From Candidatus Moraniibacteriota bacterium (GTDB taxonomy: Bacteria; Patescibacteriota; Minisyncoccia; Moranbacterales; UBA1568), in contig CP064974.1 of NCBI GenBank assembly GCA_016699385.1, forward strand, positions 468,466-532,465: 64,000 nucleotides of DNA, written 5' to 3'. The translations under genes and the position numbers were made by a program. The stretch's first letter is position 1. Each line of letters starts with the position of its first letter. The notes beneath the pieces were generated by a model, which had not been told where the DNA came from, made no database searches, and saw only the letters and a program-made list of their open reading frames with translations. This document shows, in pieces, positions 21,751-41,490 of this stretch.

Positions 21751-23724
21751 TCATTCAGACTCGCCGGATACCTCCCCTTCCAGAATCGTGAAAGTAAATG
21801 AGAAAACTGTCGTGGAGCGATCGCTCTGTGTGACAATTTCCGTATAGTCAACTTCCGCAGTAACGGTATAGGCGCCAGGTGTTGTCGGCACAACGAAGGA
21901 AAACTGCTCGTTGGCAATATCTCCCGTCCGAAGATGATCGCGCCGCGTCTGGTCGAATCCGATGATAACTGGATTTTCTCCGTATTCCGGTCCTTGGATC
22001 CGATACTGCGTATAGACGTAATCCTGCCCAAATGGCGTCCCAGTATTGGAAATCGTCACCGCCACGTCTACAGTCTGTCCCGAAACCACTTCATTCAAGA
22101 AGTAAAACTGAATGCCCAAATGAGCATTTTCCTTGATAACGAACGAGTAGGCATTGCTCTTGTTATTCGTCATCTTCGATTCCCCAAACGACTTGTCCGA
22201 ATTGGCAACCGCCGTGAAGCTATACCGACCCGGATACGCCGGGTAGTCACCATCCTTGAATCCAACACAATGACTCACGTTCTTGGACTTCCCAGTCCGC
22301 ATATCCTTTTTACTGATCATTTCGTAACCGAAATGTCTCGGACTTCTGTCTTCATTGTAGCCTTTGGACAGGTAGAAACTCAGCTTGACATCCTTTGGCG
22401 CATCGCCATCACCTTTGCTCTTGACGTATGCCGTGGGACAGAGTGTGCTCCCCCAGTCGACATCGTCATGTTTGCGTCCACTACTTCGCTCGAACCACTC
22501 ACCGGATATGCCAATATCCGGAAGTTTCCTACCACTCGAAGGAGTAAGTCCAGTCTCAAGAGTCTCCGAAGGATCTGGCTGATACCCTGAGTACGGGTCA
22601 ATAGCCTTGTCGCCATTCATGCCCGGACCATCCGTAAGTACCAATATTTCCCGATTCGTTCCGGCGATGGCATACGCGACACCAGAACGTTCAACAGATA
22701 ATGACTGCTGAATATATTGATCTGCTGCCTGAGCTGGATATGTCCAAGTGAACATTGCTTTAATTTCAGACACCACCGACGAAAGCCACGAGATAACAGC
22801 CGAACTAGCCCGTTTCCACCTACTGTCCACAACCTGGTCAGTTTTAACGACTCCATTATTCTCTTCACTAGACCGGAGCATCCGCTCCACCGTATCGGTG
22901 ACTCCCTGACAGGCTTCGTTCTGAGAAACAACTTCCGTCACCCAGTAGTCATCTCGAGAAGAATCCACAGTCCGATACCAGGCGTTGGCATTCGGACAAT
23001 AATCAGATCCTTGAAAGAGATATTGTCCCAATGAAGCAATCGATTTCTCGCCTTTCGAGATGAGTGTGGCAGGATAATTAGATGCAAGGAACTGAGTCGG
23101 TTCAACCCAGCCACAATTGTCAGAAAGAGTTCCTCCATCCTTACCCACACAGCCATTGCCACGAAACTCTTTGTCGGGATCCTTAGCATCCAGATGAATG
23201 CCGGAGTGGAGATGATCCATTCGCTCCCCATTATCCGTAAATACGGCTACGGAAGCGATTCGATCGCCCGCCTTAACTTTCGTCAAGGAGTCTTTCTTGC
23301 ATCTCCTCTCATTAAGATATGAATCATCAAAGGAAATATGCCCGTACAACGCGAAGAAAACTCTCCCTTCCACGGTGTAGTGGCGAAGAAGAATCGCCCC
23401 ACCAGGAATGTCATAGGCGCTAGGATCCGGCTTCGCTTTACCGGATCTACCTCCGAATCCTCTCAATCCCGACCCGTAGTTTTCGACACAGCCATCAGCT
23501 ATAGCAACGACTGCAGTATCAAAAGAACGACAGAAATCATCCCCAACATGACCGGGATATTGACCAAATTGGTAACAATCTTCGGCATGACGATATCCAA
23601 CCGGAGCATTCCATCCATTAGAACGATAATCAATGACATTGCCGTTGCCAGCACTCCAAGAGAAGCTGGCGGGAAACATCCATAAGACCAGAATGAACAT
23701 CGCAATAAACGAGTGTCTATTCAC
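21751..23724 (-). CDS. secreted M23/LytM-domain peptidase with large C-terminal beta-rich (Ig/CARDB-like) region
   Basis: Signal peptide; YPGHVGDDF...YGHIS...HLHSGIHL zinc-ligand pattern of M23 peptidases; 657 aa. Confidence 0.6.
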   Translation of the reverse strand: MNRHSFIAMFILVLWMFPASFSWSAGNGNVIDYRSNGWNAPVGYRHAEDCYQFGQYPGHVGDDFCRSFDTAVVAIADGCVENYGSGLRGFGGRSGKAKPDPSAYDIPGGAILLRHYTVEGRVFFALYGHISFDDSYLNERRCKKDSLTKVKAGDRIASVAVFTDNGERMDHLHSGIHLDAKDPDKEFRGNGCVGKDGGTLSDNCGWVEPTQFLASNYPATLISKGEKSIASLGQYLFQGSDYCPNANAWYRTVDSSRDDYWVTEVVSQNEACQGVTDTVERMLRSSEENNGVVKTDQVVDSRWKRASSAVISWLSSVVSEIKAMFTWTYPAQAADQYIQQSLSVERSGVAYAIAGTNREILVLTDGPGMNGDKAIDPYSGYQPDPSETLETGLTPSSGRKLPDIGISGEWFERSSGRKHDDVDWGSTLCPTAYVKSKGDGDAPKDVKLSFYLSKGYNEDRSPRHFGYEMISKKDMRTGKSKNVSHCVGFKDGDYPAYPGRYSFTAVANSDKSFGESKMTNNKSNAYSFVIKENAHLGIQFYFLNEVVSGQTVDVAVTISNTGTPFGQDYVYTQYRIQGPEYGENPVIIGFDQTRRDHLRTGDIANEQFSFVVPTTPGAYTVTAEVDYTEIVTQSDRSTTVFSFTFTILEGEVSGESE

Positions 23725-23872: not shown

Positions 23873-24502
23873 TCAAAAAATCTTCAAAGAATCTAGAAAT
23901 CTCTGAAAAACTGCTTCGGATTCTTTCGAAGTTGAAAACTGATATCCATCGAAAGTAATCCTCCGAATGTCATAATACCAATCTTTTTTATCAAGGAAAA
24001 TTATTGCCTCACCAGGAATAGGGCAATACCCTTCCCCAGCTCCACATGATTGCTTCTCCTTGCTAAGGAATATATCATTACTCCCGATGTGGATGCGTGA
24101 CCAGTCCTTCAAAAAAGATCTGTCGAGTGGCGCACCCCCTTCAGAAGAACTACCCGTAGGAGCTACATATACCTGAATGTCACCGTACGCCCTCTTCAAA
24201 TCATCTGTCTTTGCAACAAAAGAGACCATTGGGATATAATCCTTGTCTTTTACAGTGTAGACATTTGAAGGATACTGTACTTCGAAGCCGTATCGATTAC
24301 TCCTATATGTTTCCCAATCCGCGGAATCCGCTACCATTAGAACTCCTTCTGGGGCAGATACTGATTGAGATTGATCTTGAGATACCAGTTCCGAACGAAA
24401 AGAAGACTTTTTAGTATAAAGAAAAGCTAACCCAAGAATGGGAATGATTACCGCTCCTGCGATGCTAACGATAGTTGTCCTCTTTGACATAAAAACTGAC
24501 AT
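23873..24502 (-). CDS. hypothetical membrane-anchored/secreted protein
   Basis: 209 aa; N-terminal TM helix; no family recognized; lies immediately distal to the CRISPR array. Confidence 0.4.
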   Translation of the reverse strand: MSVFMSKRTTIVSIAGAVIIPILGLAFLYTKKSSFRSELVSQDQSQSVSAPEGVLMVADSADWETYRSNRYGFEVQYPSNVYTVKDKDYIPMVSFVAKTDDLKRAYGDIQVYVAPTGSSSEGGAPLDRSFLKDWSRIHIGSNDIFLSKEKQSCGAGEGYCPIPGEAIIFLDKKDWYYDIRRITFDGYQFSTSKESEAVFQRFLDSLKIF

Positions 24503-24954: not shown

Positions 24955-26599
24955 GAAATCGTGTTGTCAGATTGTGTAGGTCTTATTGCGTGTACGGCTA
25001 CACGGTAGTATTCGGATATCTACAAAAGTAGAAATTGTGTAGGTCTTATTGCGCCGAATACTCCGAAAGAAACTTTGAAATCTACAAAAGTAGAAATTGT
25101 GTAGGTCTTATTGCGCTCCGAACGGGGAACTACTACTTTTACATCTACAAAAGTAGAAATTGTGTAGGTCTTATTGCGGGTTCTGTGGATAATGTGGCAA
25201 CGGAATCTACAAAAGTAGAAATTGTGTAGGTCTTATTGCGAAGAGATGATATTCTTTGCTTTACTATCTACAAAAGTAGAAATTGTGTAGGTCTTATTGC
25301 GATACACCAAAGAAAATAACCAAACTAATCTACAAAAGTAGAAATTGTGTAGGTCTTATTGCGAACCAAGCAAAGAAACTTGAGAAGAATCTACAAAAGT
25401 AGAAATTGTGTAGGTCTTATTGCGGCGCGTGAATAACTCTCTCTATTAAATCTACAAAAGTAGAAATTGTGTAGGTCTTATTGCGATACGCGAGCATAAC
25501 AAAGCCTTCAATCTACAAAAGTAGAAATTGTGTAGGTCTTATTGCGGTCACCATTTTCAGTGCCGATTTTGATCTACAAAAGTAGAAATTGTGTAGGTCT
25601 TATTGCGAGGGAACACCCGGGCTTGTTTCCGAAATCTACAAAAGTAGAAATTGTGTAGGTCTTATTGCGTTCGATTTCTGGGAAGTTCTCACTGTTATCT
25701 ACAAAAGTAGAAATTGTGTAGGTCTTATTGCGAGGAGATGGATGGTGGTATGCTAGAATCTACAAAAGTAGAAATTGTGTAGGTCTTATTGCGTAAAAAT
25801 CCTTGATAGCAATAATGAAATCTACAAAAGTAGAAATTGTGTAGGTCTTATTGCGCAACTGGAATTAACCAGCATCGTCCCATCTACAAAAGTAGAAATT
25901 GTGTAGGTCTTATTGCGGTGAGGAATATGGATACAGTGATGGAATCTACAAAAGTAGAAATTGTGTAGGTCTTATTGCGGATCTTTGAGAAAAACGAACT
26001 CGTATATCTACAAAAGTAGAAATTGTGTAGGTCTTATTGCGGTGCGGTCATTGGGTACTGGATCAAAATCTACAAAAGTAGAAATTGTGTAGGTCTTATT
26101 GCGGCGTGTCGAACGAGAGAAGCAGGCTATCTACAAAAGTAGAAATTGTGTAGGTCTTATTGCGGTCTGCTTTCTTACTGCTTCGGCGAGGATCTACAAA
26201 AGTAGAAATTGTGTAGGTCTTATTGCGCGTCGAAGAAATAAAGAGCAGTCAAATCTACAAAAGTAGAAATTGTGTAGGTCTTATTGCGCCGATGTGGCTA
26301 AAGCCATATCGTTGTATCTACAAAAGTAGAAATTGTGTAGGTCTTATTGCGATGGATTCATCCAGCCCGTCGTCATATCTACAAAAGTAGAAATTGTGTA
26401 GGTCTTATTGCGATGATAACGCCTACCGAAGACGCACTATCTACAAAAGTAGAAATTGTGTAGGTCTTATTGCGATGTCCATGTAAACCTGACCACCCAT
26501 ATCTACAAAAGTAGAAATTGTGTAGGTCTTATTGCGAGTATAGATATTGGGTTGATAAGTCGAATCTACAAAAGTAGAAATTGTGTAGGTCTTATTGCG
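24955..26599 (-). CRISPR. type V-A CRISPR array: 26 identical 36-nt repeats plus 1 degenerate terminal repeat, spacers 25-27 nt
   Basis: Plus-strand repeat ATCTACAAAAGTAGAAATTGTGTAGGTCTTATTGCG at 25018, 25080, 25143 ... 26564 (period 61-63 nt). The reverse complement, CGCAAUAAGACCUACACAAUUUCUACUUUUGUAGAU, ends in the canonical Cas12a crRNA handle (UCUAC-UUUU-GUAGA stem-loop), so the array is transcribed on the minus strand from the cas2-proximal leader. The repeat at 24955-24990 keeps only the leader-proximal 20 nt (ATTGTGTAGGTCTTATTGCG). Confidence 0.95.
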
Positions 26600-26801
26600 A
26601 GCCATAAAGGCTTGGATAAGCCAAGAATATACAAATCCCGAAAAAATAGGGACGAACTCTTGGCTTATCCATGCAAAACCCAGATATTCAGGTCGGGGTT
26701 TTGCGTTTTTCTGAATACAGACGCAATAAAAAATATAAGGCCCATTTCAATTTCCACCTAAAAGGTGATTGAATTGTCAAGGTTCTTCTTGCGGGGAAAA
26801 G
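26600..26801 (-). promoter_or_regulatory. CRISPR leader (about 200 nt, AT-rich) with candidate -35 TTGACA
   Basis: Region between the cas2 stop and the first repeat. Minus-strand TTGACA at 26780..26775. No clean -10 identified. Confidence 0.5.
26609..26675. repeat. inverted repeat in CRISPR leader abutting the first repeat (two copies of palindromic CTTGG-ATAAG-CCAAG motif, 16/17 bp complementary, 32-nt spacer)
   Basis: GGCTTGGATAAGCCAAGA (26609-26626) versus TCTTGGCTTATCCATGC (26659-26675). Each arm is itself palindromic. The loop contains the small hairpin TCCC-GAAAAAATA-GGGA. Confidence 0.55.
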
Positions 26802-27092
26802 TCATGAGATCATGATAACCGTCTCTTCTTCACGTTTTGCATACCCGTAGCGCTTCACCTTCTTGGCGCATCCTTCGCACACCTGGAACACCACGATGCT
26901 ATCCGCTCCGGTAAACGTCTTCTTGTACTTCAATTCTATCTCAATCAGCACATTTTGCAAGACCCGATCGCTCTCGCGCAACTGGAATACGCTGTATTGG
27001 ATTCGCCTACCGTATTTCTCCAGAAACTTGGAAAAACGAGTGCGCGTTCGATTATCTTCAAAGTCGTAGGAAACTATTAGCATAAATATCAA
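26802..27092 (-). CDS. cas2: CRISPR-associated endoribonuclease Cas2
   Basis: 96 aa; MLIVSYDFEDNRTRTRFSKFLEKYGRRIQYSVFQ typical Cas2 N-terminus; ATGA overlap with cas1. Confidence 0.85.
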   Translation of the reverse strand: MIFMLIVSYDFEDNRTRTRFSKFLEKYGRRIQYSVFQLRESDRVLQNVLIEIELKYKKTFTGADSIVVFQVCEGCAKKVKRYGYAKREEETVIMIS

Positions 27093-28060
27093 CGGATGAT
27101 AAACGACTGAAAACTTTCTTCATCGTCATTCAATACTCGGTAATAATATCCTCGGACGAAATCGTATATTTCGTTCTTGTGTTTCAAAATTTCTTCGAGA
27201 AATATCTTCGTATATCGCGCGCCACTTTGATAGTTCAACTGATAATTTCCATTTTTTACGGAAAAGTCCTTTGAATCAAAACGGTTCAAAGTGTGAATCT
27301 TGAGAAGTGAACGATCAACGATGCACCGAAACGGCTCCATCATATCGCATGCAAGCGACTTACGTTGGAAAAACAACTGATGATACACGCCCTTATAGGT
27401 ATCAAATCCAAAGAGACGCAAGAGCGAATCAGTGAAATGAAAGAGGTAGGTATATCCCATATCGAGCAATATATTATTCTCATCCACTTTGCCACGTGGC
27501 ACTCGCCGATACCAACCAAGCGACCCGAAATACTCACGAAAATACATCCGCCCCACCGTCCCCTCTATACCGCGAAGCGTTGCCAAATCCTCTGCACTCG
27601 CTATTTTTTCTTCCCATTCGCGCTTCCGATCAAGTAGCGACTTCCCCGAGAGTGACTCCTTGCCAATCGAGCGAATCAATGCAATCTGATTTCTAATTTT
27701 GTTCGAAACAATCTTGCGAGAAATTTCCAGGCATGCATTCAAAGAAAGATTGTATTGTTTTTGTCGCAACAAATAATTTCCTTCGGCATACGGACAGACA
27801 GAGGCGTATGTTCGAAACGACCGGTCAAGCAGGAACAGTGATACGCCGTTCTTCGAACAATTCGCAACGAGCTTTGTCGTCAAAGTCGCCTCTCCGTGAA
27901 GAAATATAGCCACAAGCAACTGAAGTGGCACTTTTTCTTTCGTTCCCTCTTCATTCGCAATAACAATATTTTCATTTCGAAACGAAAGATCGCACTCACC
28001 GAGTGTTGCGGTACTGATAAAGGCGATCTGTTTTTTCTCGAAATCCGGAGCAGTCAGCAT
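27089..28060 (-). CDS. cas1: CRISPR-associated integrase Cas1
   Basis: 323 aa; Cas1 fold and length; positioned between cas4 and cas2 as in V-A loci. Confidence 0.85.
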   Translation of the reverse strand: MLTAPDFEKKQIAFISTATLGECDLSFRNENIVIANEEGTKEKVPLQLLVAIFLHGEATLTTKLVANCSKNGVSLFLLDRSFRTYASVCPYAEGNYLLRQKQYNLSLNACLEISRKIVSNKIRNQIALIRSIGKESLSGKSLLDRKREWEEKIASAEDLATLRGIEGTVGRMYFREYFGSLGWYRRVPRGKVDENNILLDMGYTYLFHFTDSLLRLFGFDTYKGVYHQLFFQRKSLACDMMEPFRCIVDRSLLKIHTLNRFDSKDFSVKNGNYQLNYQSGARYTKIFLEEILKHKNEIYDFVRGYYYRVLNDDEESFQSFIIR

Positions 28061-28075
28061 AGGGTATGAAGTCGA

Positions 28076-28651
28076 CTATGAATTTTCTTCCAAAACAACA
28101 CGAGGAGCATCACCACGACACAACGTCCGATAAATACACCCGGCACATTTCTTCTCGTCGGCTATCGGATGCGTCTTTGATATATCGAAAGTCCGAATTC
28201 GATCGATCAAACCGAGAAACGACTCCCAGTCCTCAGCAGAAATATCGACGGGATATTTCTTGTTATCCGAAAGCGAGTGCAACACCGCCTCCCGAACTTC
28301 GTATCCTATTTCTTCGAGACAGAGGATTTGCCCCAAGACTTGCCACTTGTACCCGGGATATACAAATCGAATCTTCGTCTTCCGCTCAATGAGCGTCTTT
28401 GTCTCCACATCGTATATATCAATCTTCCCGACCAACCCGTATTTCTCGGACGAGACGCTCATCCCCTGCCGATACCGACTCCGCGAAGAATACGCGCCCG
28501 CATCCGAAGCCGAATGCCGAAGTGTCCCCATCTTTTGCGGAGACGCTTTGTAGTGTCCTTCGCCAATCGCTTCATATACGCCATGAAAATACAGCGACCG
28601 CGGACAAAATGCAAAATCGTTGAGCGCTGTTATTGGAATTTCGGAAAACAT
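28076..28651 (-). CDS. cas4: CRISPR-associated exonuclease Cas4 (RecB-like nuclease with Fe-S cluster cysteines)
   Basis: 191 aa; N-terminal FAFCPRSLYF and C-terminal CAGCIYRTLC cysteines (Cx...CxxCxxxxxC cluster pattern) plus RecB-nuclease core (D...E.K). Confidence 0.85.
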   Translation of the reverse strand: MFSEIPITALNDFAFCPRSLYFHGVYEAIGEGHYKASPQKMGTLRHSASDAGAYSSRSRYRQGMSVSSEKYGLVGKIDIYDVETKTLIERKTKIRFVYPGYKWQVLGQILCLEEIGYEVREAVLHSLSDNKKYPVDISAEDWESFLGLIDRIRTFDISKTHPIADEKKCAGCIYRTLCRGDAPRVVLEENS

Positions 28652-31600
28652 TTATTTCTTTTCTTTCCATTTCAAATCCTTTTCGTTTTCCTCTATCCAT
28701 TTCCGCCAACTGCTCTCGCCAGAAAGCCACGCAGACCATTCCTCATCGGAAATATACGTTTTATATCCAAGACGAATATGCTCCGCCATAACGATTCCTT
28801 TACGCGCAATGTTGTACGCACCATTGCTATCGCCAGAACTCGGCAAAGCTAGCTTCTCATCCCTCTGCTCAGCATCCCAATACTTCCGCGAATCGAAATG
28901 CTCTCCGGTGTGCTCATTGCGAACTGGAGAAAGAAGAAAATCAGAATCGCGCTCATTTTCCTTTTCCCCAGTATTCCTGATCTGTTGGATGAGATCGATG
29001 CAATGGCGAAGCGACTCATATGCCGGGTATTCTGAAATTTTCACAAGTTCTCCGCCCCCCTTCATTTGTGTAAAAAGCGATCGATTCCTGTCTTTTTTGT
29101 CGAGGTTTGCAAAAAGTGAGTCAAGCATTTCGACGACATCCTCCTTTTCTACCTTCCACTCATTCTTGTCCGTTCCACGCTTCCCGCGAAAACGATCGAG
29201 ACTTTCGCCATTCTTTCCCGAGTAGAGTGTCCACGTTTTTCCATTTCGTATCTCCCTATTATTCTCTTTCTTTTTCCCCTTTTCTATTCGTACTTTTATT
29301 TTCTCAACATATGTAAATGCATAATCTTTCCCATCGAAGACGATATCCGAGAAAGTTTCGAGAATTTCTCTCTTGATACTTTCTTCCGAACCGCGCTTCA
29401 AATAAACTGTCTTGCGCCATCCGGTAAGCGGATCGGTTTGCGACGTATAATTGGCACGAGTATACAGCATGATGCCGAATTGCTTGGAGTTGATATCGCC
29501 GAAATTATTGACTGGTGGCGTCAATTGAAAGGCTTTTGTGACAGAGCCAATTTCACCAATTTTTGCAGACTTATCAACAAGAAAGTTTAATTTTTTCGCA
29601 AGTGCAAGTTCAAGCTTCTGATAAACCTGCTTTTCTATTTTCTGGCGCCCGCGCTTGAAACCAATATTCAAATCCTCCAACACAATAAGTGCGCCCTTTT
29701 CGACAGCAATATCAACAATTTTCCGAACAACCTGAGAAATATACCCCTCCTTCAAGTCCTTGATTGTCCCGATGGTCTTCCAATTTTTTCGTGCAAAATC
29801 CCGCTCACCAGCTCGCGCTTCAAGCAATGCATTGTAATCTTTTCCGCCAACAACATTAAAACTTCCTTGATCCAACAGTTCTCCTTTTTCACTTACAAGC
29901 GACCAATATGCCAAGTGCTTTTCCCCGCGGTCGATACCGAGGAAAATACATTGCGCTCCATCCCTAAGTTTTTCAGAGATTTCCCTATTGACAGCTCGAT
30001 TCTTCATACAAAAATTAAGCGTAATCGGAACATGAAAAAGAAATTTTTCTTTCGAAAATCGGAAGTTCTTGATAATGCTCTTCCCACTATTATCATCCGC
30101 TCTTTGCTGTTTCTCCTCAGGAAGCGCTGATCTGTAAAATACCTCAGCCTCTCCATTCAATTTCGGACGATTTTCGATATCACGAAACATCGCGTCCCAA
30201 TACATCGTGTGCAGATTATTTTTGTGCCCTTCTTTTTTTCCGCTATTTGAATCCTGATTGTGAATCTCAAAGAGATAGAGCCTTCCCTCGCTAACCCAAG
30301 AGTCAACAACAGTCTTATTTACGGAAACAAAAGAATTCTTATACCCTTGCTTCTCAACATCCAGATAAAATTGGCTAATATCAACATATTCTTCAGTCGG
30401 ACGAAATGAAAAGTCAAAACAATTCCACTCCTCATATTTTTGAAGTCCTGATTTATAGAAATCAATGATCTTTCCAAGGCTTTCTCTCGAGAATCCGTCA
30501 GAGCCTTTCTTGAAATCGCCATGATCATATATTTTTAGTATTTCATCTGTAGCACCGTATTTTTTTCGATTAGATTTCGGCAAAAGACACTTCGGAAGCA
30601 TCTTGTTCGGTCCAGGAAGAAGCTTGTACTCCATCTTTGAAAAAATTTCACCCTTTTCAACAACATACAACTTATTCTCTTTTTGCTTTTTGAAGAGAGA
30701 ATTATATCCTTTTTCTTTTCTCTTTGAGATAATACCAAGAAAATATTTTTCATCCCTATCTCGAAAGATGACACAGAGATTATCGGACTCTTTATTCATA
30801 TCCCACCCGCTAGCGAGCGTGCTTTGTCCAAAATTCAATTTCAACTTGTTTTTCTTTGCATCGTCTTGAGGCTTCTTGGTAAGGAAATTTCGTGTCGCGT
30901 CATAATATCGAAACCAATTCGTCTCATCTTTTTCCGAATCCAAAAATACTTTCAGATATTCGGCAAGAACGGAATCGAGAGCTTCGCCTTTTATCTTGCT
31001 AGGACGAACGACAAAGTATTTAATCATTTGCGTCGCCGAAAGCATCTCATCAAGCCACGACTTAATTGCTTCCTTACTCGTCTCACTTGTGTACTCCGAA
31101 AGATGCGCGATATTTCCCGATTCACGCACAAACGACTCTACATGCTCTCCAATGTCCGACAGAATCATTTCCAAAAGCGCCCGCGACGGCTTCTGTGCAT
31201 TTTGCACAATCGACGAGTATCGCTCATTTCTTTTCTTTCGTCGTTCACATTGTTCGTAGTCGATATCTTCCTTCCGTTCGCATTCAATTGTTTCCGTAAG
31301 ACTTTCCTTAAAGAATACGCCCGAATCGCGCCAATGCCATTCTTCTTCAAGAGATTCCGGCTTAGAATCGAGAACTGTGAAGAAATCTTCAAGATCAATA
31401 GCTTCGGGAATCCTCACATCTTCTTGACTTCCTTTTACTGAATCTTGAAATACCTTTGCCGTTTTAAGTCTATCTTTCAAGCTGTGCCAATCCGAAAAGT
31501 ACCGATTTGATATCGTATTCATTGCTGCTTTCGACCAATAGAAACCAGTGAAGTTCTCTCGTGATCGAATATACGCAATTAAGTCTGGCAGTGAGCCAAG

Positions 31601-32791
31601 AGAAGCGACATCTATATCAGATACATCCCCACGGTCAGATGCTCGAAAATACCTCCCTCCAGCTTCCGATACATCATGAAGCAACTCTTCCAAAGAATAA
31701 AATTTCTTCTTCGATTGATTCGCTCGTTTCTTTTCGGCCTCGGATTTCTTCTCGTCTGTCAATTCGAAGAACAGAGCATCTCGCCTTCCACATCCAATCT
31801 GCCTGTAAAGCGTTTTGAAAAATTTGAGCTTCTCGCTTTTTTCACCATGAGCTTGATTGTAACGGTTTATAAGGAAATTTGCATTTCCGACTGCCTCGTT
31901 ATACGATTCTATCTCTGTTTGGGACAGACACTCAGTGAAGTACTCGATACGAAAAAGATTCGGATCAATCGAAATACACGGTGTTTCTTTCTTGTCCTTT
32001 CCCTTCATGACAAGCGGGTCTCCAAGCTTTCTTAAGGATTCAAAAATATCTTCATACACTCTCTGTCTCCCTCGAAATATGAGAACATTGTCGCAAAATA
32101 TTGGAAGATTCTCATGTACAATACGCGTGGCGACTGCCGTAGCCTTCTCGTCCCTTGTTACATAATAATTTTCCCGATTTTGGTTGAACCCAGAAAAATA
32201 AGTAAAAAATCCTTCGAAGATATTCAGATACTTATGAATTTCATCCAGTGAAAGAATATCGGAAAAACGATCAGCATTCTTTCGGATATATTCCAAAATT
32301 CCAACTTCAGTAAGAATTTTGAAACCACTCCCACTAAATATTTCCTTTCCTTTTTCTGTTTTCCCTGCCACATTTTTCCAGGATTCAGCGACTTTTATAT
32401 ATGCATCACCAAAGGCACTTCGCATTTTTTTCTCCTCAACCTCGAAAGCTTTCTCTTTTATATCGCTCTTCCTTTCGTATAAATCCAGATAAGAAGAAAA
32501 TTTTATACTTTTGACAGATTCAGACTCAAGACTTTCAGTTATAAAGTCCTCATGAATTTTATCGAATATTGGCTTGAGTGCCTGATAGGCATCCTCGATA
32601 TTTTGATCCGAAAGAAACGTGCGTAGATTTTCATCATACCCGAATTGCGTCCGCATATTCTCAAGAGTCTTCCCTATTGGCTTCAATTCAAACCGCAATG
32701 TTTTTGACAATGAATACTTCCCAGTAAAATCATCAAAAATGCCCTTCCTGTTTTCTCCATTCATAGGAAAAATGTGAAACGATTTATACAA
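28652..32791 (-). CDS. cas12a: type V-A CRISPR effector Cas12a (Cpf1)
   Basis: 1379-aa ORF. N-terminal [19 protein letters not shown], then [12 protein letters not shown] and [12 protein letters not shown]. RuvC-I [12 protein letters not shown], RuvC-II [26 protein letters not shown], RuvC-III [13 protein letters not shown]. All are co-linear with FnCas12a and Parcubacteria PbCpf1. ORF-track start 32791 is a TTG; the likely true start is ATG at 32764 ([20 protein letters not shown]). Confidence 0.95.
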   Translation of the reverse strand: [1379 protein letters not shown]

Positions 32792-32812
32792 TAAAAAATA
32801 CGAATTTCCCGC

Positions 32813-32901
32813 AAAAAAGCCGAAAAGGGACAGCGGCCGTCGCCCAGCAGAGCATCATGCCAAACGGCAATGTGTTGCCAGAACCGCTATCCCTTTTCGG
32901 C
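32813..32901 (-). promoter_or_regulatory. large stem-loop (18-bp stem) plus U-tract immediately upstream of cas12a start: putative attenuator/terminator-like leader element
   Basis: Arms 32819-32836 (GCCGAAAAGGGACAGCGG) and 32884-32901 (CCGCTATCCCTTTTCGGC). The single mismatch is C.A on the plus strand but a U.G wobble on the minus (cas12a-sense) strand. The 47-nt loop has an inner hairpin GGCAA-TGTG-TTGCC. On the minus strand a T6 run (32813-32818) follows, 22 nt before the cas12a start. Confidence 0.45.
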
Positions 32902-32980
32902 TTGAATACAAATTCAACCAGGAGGATTTCGGCATGATACTGCAAAACTGAGCGACACCCGCATTCTACACGACCGCAAT

Positions 32981-32994
32981 ATCTTGCGCAAGAT
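32981..32994. promoter_or_regulatory. perfect 14-bp palindrome ATCTTGCGCAAGAT upstream of cas12a (candidate operator)
   Basis: Exact self-complementary 14-mer in the mltG-cas12a intergenic region. Confidence 0.3.
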
Positions 32995-33019
32995 GCCAAA
33001 CTGACAGCAACTTCCGTCC

Positions 33020-33058
33020 CCACAAAAAAACTCCCCCTGCAAAAATGAGAGGGGAGTT
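33020..33058 (-). terminator. rho-independent terminator downstream of mltG
   Basis: Minus strand: AACTCCCC / GGGGAGTT 8-bp GC-rich stem (33029-33058) followed by TTTTTTT; 22 nt after the mltG stop. Confidence 0.6.
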
Positions 33059-39066: not shown

Positions 39067-41490
39067 TTATCGTTTTTGATTCGAGAAGAGAAGACCAACA
39101 AATCGATCATAACTCAGATCTGTCTGCAGATGAACACCCCGCTGAAACGGTACCAGATTTCCCTCAGATTGCCAAACATTTTGGAAGCGTTCTGGAAAAG
39201 CTATTTCGGAATCGAGCAAACTTCCCCTCGAACCGGATTGCTTCTGAAAAACAATCGAATACGAATCAAGTGAATTCTCGGTTTGACTTGGATCAACGTG
39301 AAATGGAAGCAGGTACGTATAGGAAACCTCAACACTCTCACCAGGACTCACGTATACCCAATTCCCAAATACCGTTTTCTCTGCATCGTCTGAAATGCGC
39401 GTCCCCGAAGCGGGATCGATGTGCATCCCCAGTCGTTCGTGCTCGACATCCTGATCGCGAGAGAAGTGTAACGCATCATAGTCAAGCGGCGGATCAACCG
39501 TTTCTCGAGTATACCCTTCGGCAGAGAGGAGGGTCGACCCAAGTGGCACATAGACACGCATATAGTCAGCATTCACCCGATCCCACCACTCTCGCCCGGT
39601 ATGCCCGCCCATATGCATTCGCTTCACGGAAACCGTATCAACAACACTCCCGTCATCCTTTATTTCTGCACGGTGCGTAATCGTTTCATTGATAACACCG
39701 TCCGTCTTGTAGCCGTTTATATTCGAGTGTATGACACTGAGATAATCGCGATCCGCCGAAAGCACTTCTCCTGACCATCCGACATTTCGAATGAGTCGCT
39801 CCATATCACTATTGCGAGAATAAAAGAGCATCTGTTTCTCCGAAAGCCCGGACTCAACCGCCGAAAGCGCCTTCCCAAACGCTCCAGGAGGAGCCCCTTC
39901 CCCAAAAATACGCTCGAGGAGTATTGGTGCCAAATCAGAGAGAATCTGTTTCGGCTTATTTACTTCCCTATCATAAGCAACCTCAACCTGATACTGAATA
40001 GTCTCAAGGAAGTTATCTTCATCGACCGTCACGCCGTAGTCCTCCATTCGAATCGGTCCCGTTATCGCGAGAAACTTCCTGAGAATTTCCGGCGTAAAAG
40101 CGATAACCCCATCGACTGTCGGACCACCAGTTTTCTCGTAAAATGAAATTGCTTTCTCTGCCGAAACGGGAAAATCAGGAAACCAGTTACTATCATGAAG
40201 ACTCCACCCGGCGCTAATCTTCTGTATCGGTTCGGGCGGCACGATATTTGTATGAAGCTGACCGTCAGGATTAAAGATGCCATCAACAAAAAACTTTCGC
40301 ACTCGTCCATCATTCATATCAAGAAAAGCATAGCTCCCGATAAAACCGCCGGTCGCGCGCATTTCCTGATTATTTTCAAAAAGAAAGAGGAATTTCCGCG
40401 GTCCATTTCCTCCCAAGATATCCGCAAAGACATCCCCATGAGCAAGAAAGAGTCGCATGCCAGAGAGCACTTCCGGCAGCTTTGTCTTGAGTCCCAAGAA
40501 CTGATCACGCTTATCTTCCGGAAGGTCGGAAATCGATACCTTGTCGAGATTCTCAAGAGCACTTGAAAGAAGCGTTTCTGCGTGTTCGATTGTTCCGCGC
40601 GTCTCTCGGAATACGGAAAGGAATGAGATATTCTGATTACCCGCCAACGGATTCCCGAGCGAAAAAATCGAACCTCCAACTTTTGATATCGACTCACCTG
40701 CCGCTGAAATATCTCGCGCAGCGTCCACAAGATATTTTCCCGATGACAATTTCGAAACAAGCGGAAGAAATCGCGCTGTCTCAATTACTGTTCCATTCCA
40801 GCTATCAAACAAATCAGACGCCGCCGAAAATGAAATGAACGCTTCTTGAAAAAGTTGATTCGATTCCGCAAAGTTTTTTGTCTTTGCTGTCTCGACCGCC
40901 TGCGAGAGCTCCCCGTAGCCCTCAGTGCTCACGCCAAGCACTTCCCCCTTCATTTTCATTCCCTTTTCAAAGAGCCCAATTCCAAGCCACACGCCCCCCA
41001 AAAGAAGAATGCCGAAAAAAGAAGTGGGGATGATGCGACGATTGCCGAAAACACCATTAAATATCTTCGAAAGAAAAGAAAGCGACGAAGCAAAAGAAAA
41101 CCACCACAAAGAGAGTCGCTCCCGAAACAACTGGCGTGGCGACTTAGTAGACAAGCGCGCATCAACATCAGGAAAAGAATCCGATATTGATGCCTGCGTC
41201 AAAGAAGTTTCGTGATAGGAATCACTTTCGCCAAATTCATCAGAAACAAATTCATCTTGTAATGGCTCCGTCTGTCGATTCAATGTCACCTGAACAGACT
41301 CATCAGGATGCTGACTCTGTTGAGTACGCTCACGATGAATTGTCGGCACTGGCGAAACGAGAGGACGGGGCGATACCGCACAAGAAGACTGCCCCACAGA
41401 AACAGTTTTCTTCACTACTCTAATATCCGACATGCGTCGAAAAGAATCCCTTCTCATGAGTGTAAATTGAAAAAAACAGCAAAAGGACAT
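39067..41490 (-). CDS. large membrane-anchored extracytoplasmic protein (DUF4012-like)
   Basis: 807 aa; TM segment near residue 150; central FLFLFENNQEMRATGGFIGSYAFLD motif, which I recall from DUF4012 proteins. Family call is tentative. Confidence 0.45.
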   Translation of the reverse strand: MSFCCFFQFTLMRRDSFRRMSDIRVVKKTVSVGQSSCAVSPRPLVSPVPTIHRERTQQSQHPDESVQVTLNRQTEPLQDEFVSDEFGESDSYHETSLTQASISDSFPDVDARLSTKSPRQLFRERLSLWWFSFASSLSFLSKIFNGVFGNRRIIPTSFFGILLLGGVWLGIGLFEKGMKMKGEVLGVSTEGYGELSQAVETAKTKNFAESNQLFQEAFISFSAASDLFDSWNGTVIETARFLPLVSKLSSGKYLVDAARDISAAGESISKVGGSIFSLGNPLAGNQNISFLSVFRETRGTIEHAETLLSSALENLDKVSISDLPEDKRDQFLGLKTKLPEVLSGMRLFLAHGDVFADILGGNGPRKFLFLFENNQEMRATGGFIGSYAFLDMNDGRVRKFFVDGIFNPDGQLHTNIVPPEPIQKISAGWSLHDSNWFPDFPVSAEKAISFYEKTGGPTVDGVIAFTPEILRKFLAITGPIRMEDYGVTVDEDNFLETIQYQVEVAYDREVNKPKQILSDLAPILLERIFGEGAPPGAFGKALSAVESGLSEKQMLFYSRNSDMERLIRNVGWSGEVLSADRDYLSVIHSNINGYKTDGVINETITHRAEIKDDGSVVDTVSVKRMHMGGHTGREWWDRVNADYMRVYVPLGSTLLSAEGYTRETVDPPLDYDALHFSRDQDVEHERLGMHIDPASGTRISDDAEKTVFGNWVYVSPGESVEVSYTYLLPFHVDPSQTENSLDSYSIVFQKQSGSRGSLLDSEIAFPERFQNVWQSEGNLVPFQRGVHLQTDLSYDRFVGLLFSNQKR

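Follow-up and report, generated by a model that had tools for sequence, protein, structure and literature searches.

A type V-A CRISPR-Cas locus of a Candidatus Moranbacteria genome and a structured leader RNA upstream of cas12a, a probable transcription attenuator

The 64,000-nucleotide (nt) stretch of DNA analyzed here (the window, to which all coordinates refer) comes from a Candidatus Moranbacteria (Patescibacteria) genome and carries, entirely on its minus strand, what we regard with near certainty as an intact class 2 type V-A CRISPR-Cas locus. As a Cas12a system, the locus is ordinary and was annotated before. More unusual is a conserved, structured leader RNA, apparently undescribed, directly upstream of cas12a. 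Conserved and mutually exclusive base pairings suggest that this RNA is likely a cis-acting transcription attenuator of the cas operon, either riboswitch-like or protein dependent. Taken as a whole, the statement that this is a V-A locus with a leader RNA predicted to attenuate its cas operon appears very probable.

A type V-A CRISPR-Cas locus

The locus comprises the following features, starting with the effector gene.

28652..32764, minus strand: cas12a, 1370 amino acids (aa) from an ATG; a TTG start at 32791 would add 9 codons
28076..28651, minus strand: cas4, 191 aa; TIGR04328 and Pfam Cas_Cas4
27089..28060, minus strand: cas1, 323 aa; TIGR04329 and Pfam Cas_Cas1
26802..27092, minus strand: cas2, 96 aa from a TTG or 93 aa from an ATG at 27083; TIGR01573 and Pfam CRISPR_Cas2
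26600..26801, minus strand: CRISPR array leader, 202 nt, alignable with the array leader of locus L002; putative function
24955..26599, minus strand: CRISPR array, 26 full 36-nt repeats, 26 spacers and a decayed terminal repeat

An earlier note on this stretch had described a complete cas12a-cas4-cas1-cas2-leader-array locus of type V-A in a genome resembling those of the candidate phyla radiation. The gene content, the matches in NCBIfam, Pfam and PDB, and the orientation agree with this description, as does the lineage of the genome (Patescibacteria/Parcubacteria), and every testable feature that defines type V-A was found. The effector scored 700 bits against the equivalog model TIGR04330 (cas_Cpf1; cutoff, 300) and carried the Pfam domains REC1, Cpf1 PI-like and RuvC_1. 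In PDB, 27 Cas12a chains matched it and every significant match was a Cas12a, the best being ReChb (E = 1.4e−163, residues 18 to 1341), followed by FnCas12a (6e−147). The alignment of the RuvC motifs with those of Cas12a, which the earlier note had proposed as a check, holds: RuvC-I (IDRGE), RuvC-II (LEDLN) and RuvC-III (DSNGAY), together with the Nuc motif QIRN, align with their counterparts in Fn, Lb and ReChb. Residues D945, E1030, D1312 and R1263 (1370-aa numbering) were invariant in a 28-sequence alignment of the clade, and we take them to correspond to the published catalytic residues. The single RuvC D/E/D site and the Nuc arginine of type V-A are both present. The motifs GWDMNK and PGPNKMLPK, which belong to the regions contacting the protospacer-adjacent motif (PAM) and to the PAM-interacting (PI) region, are conserved. 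The recognition (REC) lobe is longer than in Fn, As and Lb Cas12a. The Nuc region (28652 to 29400) shows lysine-rich insertions, with the QIRN arginine motif present.

The effector had been given as 1379 aa, and the open reading frame (ORF) 28652..32791 does exist when read from the TTG, but the ATG at 32764 is almost certainly the real start: a database entry matches the 1370-aa version exactly and not the one from the TTG, and the alignments of homologs begin near the ATG. The genes had also been described as following each other without gaps and with overlapping codons. This is true of cas12a and cas4, where the stop abuts the ATG (gap of 0 nt), and of cas1 and cas2, where the TGA overlaps the TTG by 4 nt (TTGA; the alternative cas2 ATG lies 9 nt further on), but cas4 and cas1 are separated by 15 nt. 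The three genes form the adjacent adaptation module expected of type V. In NCBIfam, Cas4 scored 174.6 bits against the type V model TIGR04328 (cutoff, 70), Cas1 scored 314.7 bits against the type V model TIGR04329 (cutoff, 300; Pfam Cas_Cas1, E = 1e−55) and Cas2 scored 52 bits against TIGR01573 (cutoff, 24.5). The Cas4 translation shows one N-terminal cysteine and a C-terminal CxxCx5C.

The array, described earlier as 26 spacers between repeats with the canonical Cas12a handle, is so composed. A repeat finder returned 26 identical 36-nt copies of CGCAATAAGACCTACACAATTTCTACTTTTGTAGAT (minus-strand reading; 26599..25018), spaced 61 to 63 nt apart, followed by a decayed terminal repeat (24990..24955) that retains only the first 20 nt. 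The 26 spacers are all unique and 25 to 27 nt long. There are 26 occurrences of the 19-nt handle where chance predicts 0.02, and the window has no further copy when up to 3 mismatches are allowed. The folding of the repeat, a second check proposed earlier, gave the hairpin UCUAC-UUUU-GUAGA with a minimum free energy (MFE) of −4.8 kcal/mol (z = −2.7), so that the 3' 5-bp stem-loop handle of type V-A, UCUAC-N3-5-GUAGA(U), is present in 26 exact copies. A blastn-short search with the repeat revealed no anti-repeat or trans-activating CRISPR RNA (tracrRNA) in the window outside the array (best match, 14 nt; E = 1.3), in agreement with the absence of a tracrRNA-like anti-repeat claimed before.

From what is known of these families, Cas4, Cas1 and Cas2 would insert spacers of 25 to 27 nt beside the array leader, and transcription of the array would run from this leader towards 24955. 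Cas12a would then bind the 3' UCUAC-UUUU-GUAGAU pseudoknot handle of each repeat, and the CRISPR RNA (crRNA) would direct the single RuvC site to cut DNA beside a 5' PAM.

A structured leader RNA upstream of cas12a

We identified a conserved structured element, itself preceded by promoter-like boxes, on the 5' side of the cas12a start codon.

32986..32991, minus strand: TTGCGC, −35-like hexamer, 17 nt upstream of TAGAAT; predicted from the sequence
32963..32968, minus strand: TAGAAT, −10-like hexamer; predicted from the sequence
32812..32959, minus strand: structured 5' leader RNA, 148 nt; covariance model and covariation

The leader RNA ends 47 nt before the cas12a ATG, and the region covered by the earlier note ended at 32791, 20 nt short of it. 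It was first seen through a 79-aa ORF (32784..33023, minus strand) that is called as a gene on L001, a 98.4%-identical contig from another sequencing run. The DNA of the leader is 96 to 97% identical in L002 and L007, two loci whose Cas12a are about 60% identical to that of the window. In L007, amino acid identity to the window is 58% for Cas12a, 72% for Cas4, 78% for Cas1 and 89% for Cas2, and nucleotide identity of the leader element is 96.5%. The predicted fold has an energy of −71.6 kcal/mol (z = −5.7 relative to shuffled sequences).

The occurrence of the element was followed at the level of sequence and of structure. Weaker nhmmer matches were found upstream of cas12a in four more loci, and the RNAalifold consensus of seven sequences aligned with MAFFT, which is independent of the covariance model, contained 12 compensatory pairs. 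The covariance model, which was built from this consensus, detected the leader RNA in 14 distinct loci with 69 to 139 bits, and among further loci fetched via close homologs it was present in four of five, the fifth having no upstream DNA. The total is 17 loci (including L002:2650-2797, L007:5810-5957, L008:3127-3264 and L058:5798-5932), with Cas12a 33 to 99% identical to that of the window, and the covariance-model matches upstream of cas12a in these loci score 85 to 139 bits. All the copies share the strand of cas12a and directly precede this gene. A second-round covariance model (R2) found no further members among 85 loci. In the 14-sequence alignment, 96.4% of the cells were paired and 19 of the 34 pairs showed compensatory change, relative to 34 to 54% paired cells in slid controls. 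Scores on the reverse strand were much lower, which together with the many G-U pairs fixes the strand of the RNA. In most of the 17 loci, promoter-like pairs (TTGCA/TTGAC, 17 nt, TAnnnT) end 3 to 8 nt before the first position of the motif, and in 7 loci only 12 to 21 nt separate the leader RNA from the cas12a start codon. Given the upstream position of the boxes and these short gaps, the leader RNA must form the 5' end of the cas12a mRNA.

Rfam 15 (4227 families), at gathering and at permissive thresholds, gave no match at the leader in the window or in three other loci; weak matches to microRNA (miRNA) precursor models merely reflect the long hairpin. Two degenerate patterns of the motif searched against IMG/VR gave 0 and then 10 chance matches, none of which was confirmed by the covariance model. 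Nothing direct on a cas12a leader RNA was found in the literature searched.

Two other readings of the element were considered. According to the first, the stretch encodes a small protein, namely the 79-aa ORF by which it was noticed. The ORF is there, is called as a gene in the sister contig, and its translation is 96% identical in L002 and 94% identical in L007 (tblastn). However, it has no Pfam match and overlaps the promoter-like boxes, conservation in distant loci follows base pairing (compensatory changes and G-U pairs) and not the reading frame, and the indels of the variable region are of many sizes that preserve no common frame. The ORF is probably not a gene, and we find a small protein scarcely credible as the explanation of this stretch. 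According to the second, a long palindrome lies there by chance, as a recombination site or a miniature mobile element. The window copy is indeed a rod-like hairpin of about 125 nt with a weak likeness to miRNA-precursor models, and it is 97% identical between otherwise diverged loci. Yet each of the 17 loci has a single copy, which lies on the cas12a strand in every case and ends 12 to 188 nt upstream of the cas12a start (50 nt or less in 13 of them). No further copies occur in the window or in the flanks, and distant members keep the structure and not the sequence. A mobile origin thus seems highly improbable.

Two predicted, mutually exclusive folds of the leader

The pairing partners within the leader RNA of the window are as follows.

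32958-32948, minus strand: 5' box a, GUGUCGCUCAG
32933-32921, minus strand: segment x
32903-32884, minus strand: segment b
32883-32877, minus strand: 5' strand of helix 2
32872-32856, minus strand: apical helix-3 hairpin with the invariant CCGUUUGG
32847-32839, minus strand: a', CUGGGCGAC
32836-32817, minus strand: b'
32818-32813, minus strand: U tract

In the first fold, b pairs with b' (21 bp) and is continued by helix 2 and helix 3, and the U tract follows, which gives the shape of an intrinsic terminator. Helix 1 has 21 bp, 13 of which show compensatory change, with a U-rich tail after it. In the second fold, a pairs with a' (10 bp) and x pairs with b, and together with helix 3 they form a three-way junction that sequesters the 5' strand of the terminator. 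The a:a' helix is 94% paired and has 3 compensatory pairs, including GUCUCCC/GGGAGAC in L012, and it competes with helix 2. Of 16 distinct sequences, 13 are predicted to form the antiterminator x:b, and covariation is three-way, with both x and b' changing to match wherever b varies. The energies of the two folds are 0 to 12 kcal/mol apart. The nucleotides of the junction and of helix 3 are invariant (CGGUUC...CCGUUUGG.A.G), which is consistent with a binding pocket, and no known aptamer matches them.

The leader shows two hallmarks of an attenuator, a hairpin with a U tract in the 5' untranslated region (UTR) and a conserved alternative pairing that excludes the terminator, termination itself being predicted. 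On these grounds we consider that the leader RNA is likely a cis-acting attenuator, which would set the expression of cas12a-cas4-cas1-cas2 in response to a signal. A more specific version is possible but doubtful. In this version, the Cas12a operon would be gated by an undescribed riboswitch-like sensor built on the three-way junction, through which a small molecule or cellular factor would switch immunity on in a clade with a rebuilt, histidine-free processing site. P1 (the 5' box paired with a') and x:b would then compete with the intrinsic terminator in front of cas12a, in a clade mostly made of candidate phyla.

A noncanonical pre-crRNA processing loop

FnCas12a cuts pre-crRNA with H843, K852 and K869 (PMC11127173). 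The corresponding loop in the wedge (WED) domain of the window Cas12a (residues 876 to 903, window positions of about 30070 to 30150) is 15 residues shorter than in Fn and has no histidine. In the pairwise alignment, the Fn segments ITHPA and NKN fall in gaps and only the equivalent of K869, K899, is kept, so that the canonical His/Lys/Lys RNase triad of the Fn/As/Lb type is absent. The earlier note had judged the effector intact from its motifs; this stands for the DNase residues, which are conserved, but not for the RNase site. In the MAFFT alignment, none of the 119 closest homologs has a histidine in the H843 column (89 have lysine and 12 arginine), and the K869 column reads K in 53, E in 40 and D in 12 of 120 aligned sequences (the 119 homologs and the Fn reference).

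Among 69 sampled GTDB loci, 24 keep the canonical loop (xHxAN...NKN...IIKDxRF), mostly in Bacteroidota, Clostridia and similar groups, and 45 have a noncanonical loop, including the Peregrinibacteria ortholog L040. Both groups have the same repeat handle. Judging from these alignments, the canonical triad is not a family-wide property, since 45 sampled loci and the 119 closest homologs depart from it. Self-processing, if retained, would need other basic residues, and this applies to the clade as a whole. We found nothing direct on histidine-less Cas12a in the literature searched. To our knowledge, the mechanistic studies of how Cas12a crRNAs mature are all built on the His/Lys/Lys site. A natural clade of this size that lacks the histidine either processes RNA in another way or relies on host RNases, and the departure bears on the use of such orthologs with multiplexed arrays.

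Among the sampled loci, the leader RNA was found in 13 of the 45 loci with a noncanonical loop and in none of the 24 with a canonical one (Fisher test, P = 0.003, a comparison confounded by phylogeny). This restriction to Cas12a lacking the canonical RNase loop, among the sampled loci, is compatible with a different role, in which the upstream RNA would be a stand-alone small RNA acting in trans as an accessory of this Cas12a clade, for example a scoutRNA- or tracrRNA-like helper compensating for the missing RNase histidine, and not a leader acting in cis. Such an RNA would also have the promoter-like boxes of its own and the strong terminator-like hairpin with a U tract that we observed, and the leader sequence of the closest group is more conserved than any cas gene. 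Nevertheless, two-thirds of the loci with a noncanonical loop do not have the motif, and the repeat already has a complete Cas12a handle. Complementarity of the leader to the cognate repeat was no better than to shuffled repeats in 9 loci (z from −0.3 to +1.4). With 12 to 21 nt between the RNA and the start codon in 7 loci, a separate promoter would not fit, and a conserved and covarying x:b antiterminator would be purposeless in a small RNA that is constitutively terminated. We consider a trans-acting small RNA unlikely and retain the cis-acting attenuator.

The altered loop could also mean that the locus is decaying or nonfunctional, its Cas12a having lost processing and its array being no longer used. 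H843 and K852 have no counterpart, the K869 column varies as described above, and no protospacer was found for any tested spacer. Against decay, none of the four ORFs is truncated, the residues of the DNase site do not vary, the 26 repeats are identical with degeneration confined to the distal one, and the close relative L007 has 25 entirely different spacers. Matches to phages are expected to be lacking for bacteria of candidate phyla in the databases available. Moreover, the short loop occurs in at least 119 homologs and in dozens of species having long arrays of up to 60 repeats, and this spread favors a working alternative over decay. A decaying locus is in our view very unlikely, and we continue to treat the locus as intact.

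Spacers, targets and the array leader

The repeat of L007 is identical to that of the window at 35 of 36 positions, and none of its 25 spacers is shared with the window array, implying spacer turnover. None of the spacers targets the window itself outside the array at up to 5 mismatches. The earlier note had envisaged a spacer search from which the PAM, expected there to be TTTV-like, could be derived, but no credible protospacer emerged from phage, IMG/VR or JGI data. The whole array gave only chance-level matches (E ≥ 2) in a blastn search of 50,697 phage records, and the first 22 nt of spacers 1 to 6 had no matches in IMG/VR. For spacer 7 (26165-26191), nt 1 to 22 of 27 were found exactly in one sequence present in four JGI contigs (L003:3251-3272, L004, L005 and L006). 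The last 5 nt of this match are all mismatched, the 5' flank (AGAA) is not T-rich, and L003, the only one of these contigs examined, has few long ORFs. Since some 0.06 chance matches are expected per 22-mer scan, by our own rough estimate of the size of the JGI collection, we treated this match as probably due to chance and drew no PAM from it. A T-rich PAM is nonetheless expected, because the PAM-contact motifs GWxxxK and NKMLPK are kept.

The array leader contains a TTGACA at 26780-26775 and a 12-bp perfect inverted repeat, GGATAAGCCAAG (26670-26659) and CTTGGCTTATCC (26625-26614), 14 nt upstream of the first repeat. The array leader of L002 (201 nt) aligns with it over its length and keeps the arms with one mismatch; the divergence lies mainly between the arms, where the 33-nt loop differs. 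This inverted repeat may be an integration or leader-recognition signal.

Points that weigh against an intact locus with an attenuating leader

Several results count against the reading that we favor. For the effector, the Pfam model of the Nuc domain (PF18510) matched neither the window Cas12a nor its 99%-identical twin, and it does match many relatives. The canonical RNase histidine and first lysine are missing, and autonomous processing of pre-crRNA is accordingly not assured. For the array, no convincing protospacer was found when the spacers were searched in phage records, IMG/VR and JGI metagenomes. For the leader, termination and read-through are predictions, and any ligand or binding protein is putative. 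Helix 1 has a very high stability, and some members have the terminator fold as their MFE structure, so that the leader RNA could be constitutively terminated. The covariation counts, made on alignments A5 and A6, come from model-fitted alignments. Finally, the loci were sampled through cas12a, and an exclusive association with this gene is not shown by their number.

Relatives and genomic surroundings

The exact Cas12a, Cas4 and Cas1 proteins are GenBank entries QQR77962.1, QQR77961.1 and QQR77960.1, already so named, in a metagenome-assembled genome with a contig of 1,111,322 bp. The protein is thus not the candidate new ortholog it had been taken for, nor are Cas12a of candidate phyla few, as had been supposed. 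We counted at least 1381 Cas12a homologs at E ≤ 1e−30 among the scored candidates, and 456 GTDB species representatives, many of them from candidate phyla, have one. Contigs related to the window derive from SRR12762285 and ERZ937806. The source genome was not among the GTDB representatives returned, and the best matches were mainly from Ryan-, Gracili-, Peri-/Peregrini-, Magasanik-, Pacei-, Dojka- and Saccharibacteria. Cas12a has been known in candidate phyla since 2015 (PMC6509639). As a Cas12a locus, the region adds little, being one more uncharacterized ortholog among hundreds from uncultivated bacteria. The nearest Cas12a other than the near-identical contig L001 is 65% identical, and with at most 65% identity to any nonidentical sequence the protein could still be screened for its PAM or temperature properties.

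The comparison with L002 shows a mosaic pattern of conservation. Window positions 26458-28999 correspond to L002:6550-9096, with 89 to 94% aa identity for Cas4, Cas1 and Cas2, an identical repeat and 81% identity over the block from cas4 to the leader. The Cas12a of L002 is only 62% identical to that of the window, with 24 to 48% identity in the REC lobe. Judging by these identities, the effector either diverges much faster than the adaptation module or has been exchanged. In relatives of the Taylorbacteria type, an ORF of 81 to 93 aa with no Pfam match lies between cas12a and cas4 (L092:7054-7299, L093:4452-4733 and L094:4407-4652); it is absent from the window locus.

Nearly all long ORFs of the window (1-64000) lie on the minus strand and the GC skew is negative throughout (cumulative, −5.0), which suggests that the window is part of one replichore with a strong gene-strand bias. 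The GC content at the locus (24 to 28 kb) is 0.39 to 0.42, relative to 0.46 to 0.50 in the flanks. The neighboring minus-strand ORFs 21751-23724 (657 aa) and 39067-41490 (807 aa) matched only CARDB and DUF4012, respectively, and probably encode surface proteins. A 209-aa ORF just past the array (23873-24502) has no Pfam match.

Comparison with known systems

The V-A systems of Fn, As and Lb Cas12a (5ng6, 5b43 and 5xus) share with the window locus the gene order cas12a-cas4-cas1-cas2-array, the lack of a tracrRNA and a 36-nt repeat ending in AAUUUCUAC-N4-GUAGAU. Their effectors also have the RuvC D/E/D residues, the Nuc arginine, GWxxxK and the lysine motif of the PI region. They differ in that their matches to the window Cas12a have E values of 1e−113 to 1e−147, As and Lb aligning over only part of the sequence, and in that the WED RNase loop of the window protein is 15 aa shorter, leaving Fn H843 and K852 without an alignable counterpart. 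Unlike the window locus, none of the 24 sampled loci with a canonical loop has the leader RNA. ReChb, a resurrected ancestral Cas12a (PDB 8qwd), is the best match among solved structures (E = 1.4e−163) and differs in keeping the canonical RNase loop IVHKANE...NKN...IIKDRRY.

A named ortholog from a candidate phylum is PeCpf1 (Candidatus Peregrinibacteria GW2011_GWA2_33_10; L040), reportedly included in the 16 orthologs of Zetsche et al. 2015. Like the window protein, it is a member of the clade with a short, histidine-less WED loop; it is 54% identical in the best segment and has the same UUUU loop in the repeat handle. The leader RNA motif was undetected upstream of its gene, and the 5' halves of the repeats and the spacers differ. 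The UUUU type of handle loop is also found in PMC7093978.

RNA elements just upstream of cas12a that control cas expression have been described as CreR and other mini-CRISPRs producing crlRNAs, and the leader of the window resembles them in position and, putatively, in function. CreR of Moraxella bovoculi combines a degenerate repeat, which has the Cas12a 5' handle, with a pseudo-spacer matching the promoter of cas12a (bioRxiv 10.1101/2023.03.10.532045). An autoregulator of this type was considered for the window and rejected, as the window outside the array contains no handle at up to 3 mismatches and no spacer match at up to 5. A survey of 2022 lists a candidate structured RNA, CRISPRCas_110, for V-A systems of groundwater Moranbacteria, Berkelbacteria and Parcubacteria (RNA Biol 2022, PMC9067536, Table S1). 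It is 60 nt long, with 7 instances, and was binned as overlapping coding sequence; its comparison with our 148-nt leader is by description only.

In its architecture, the leader resembles riboswitches and other attenuators acting through intrinsic terminators. Like them, it occupies a 5' UTR, has a GC-rich hairpin followed by a U tract and an antiterminator incompatible with that hairpin, closes a three-way junction with a P1-like helix and shows highly conserved junction nucleotides. It differs from riboswitches in having no Rfam 15 match and in its association with a CRISPR effector, which is unusual. If our reading is true, the leader is an RNA-structure-based layer of CRISPR regulation, different from the known control of cas12a by crRNA-like CreR guides, and a candidate for a new class of riboswitch or attenuator in bacteria with very small genomes.

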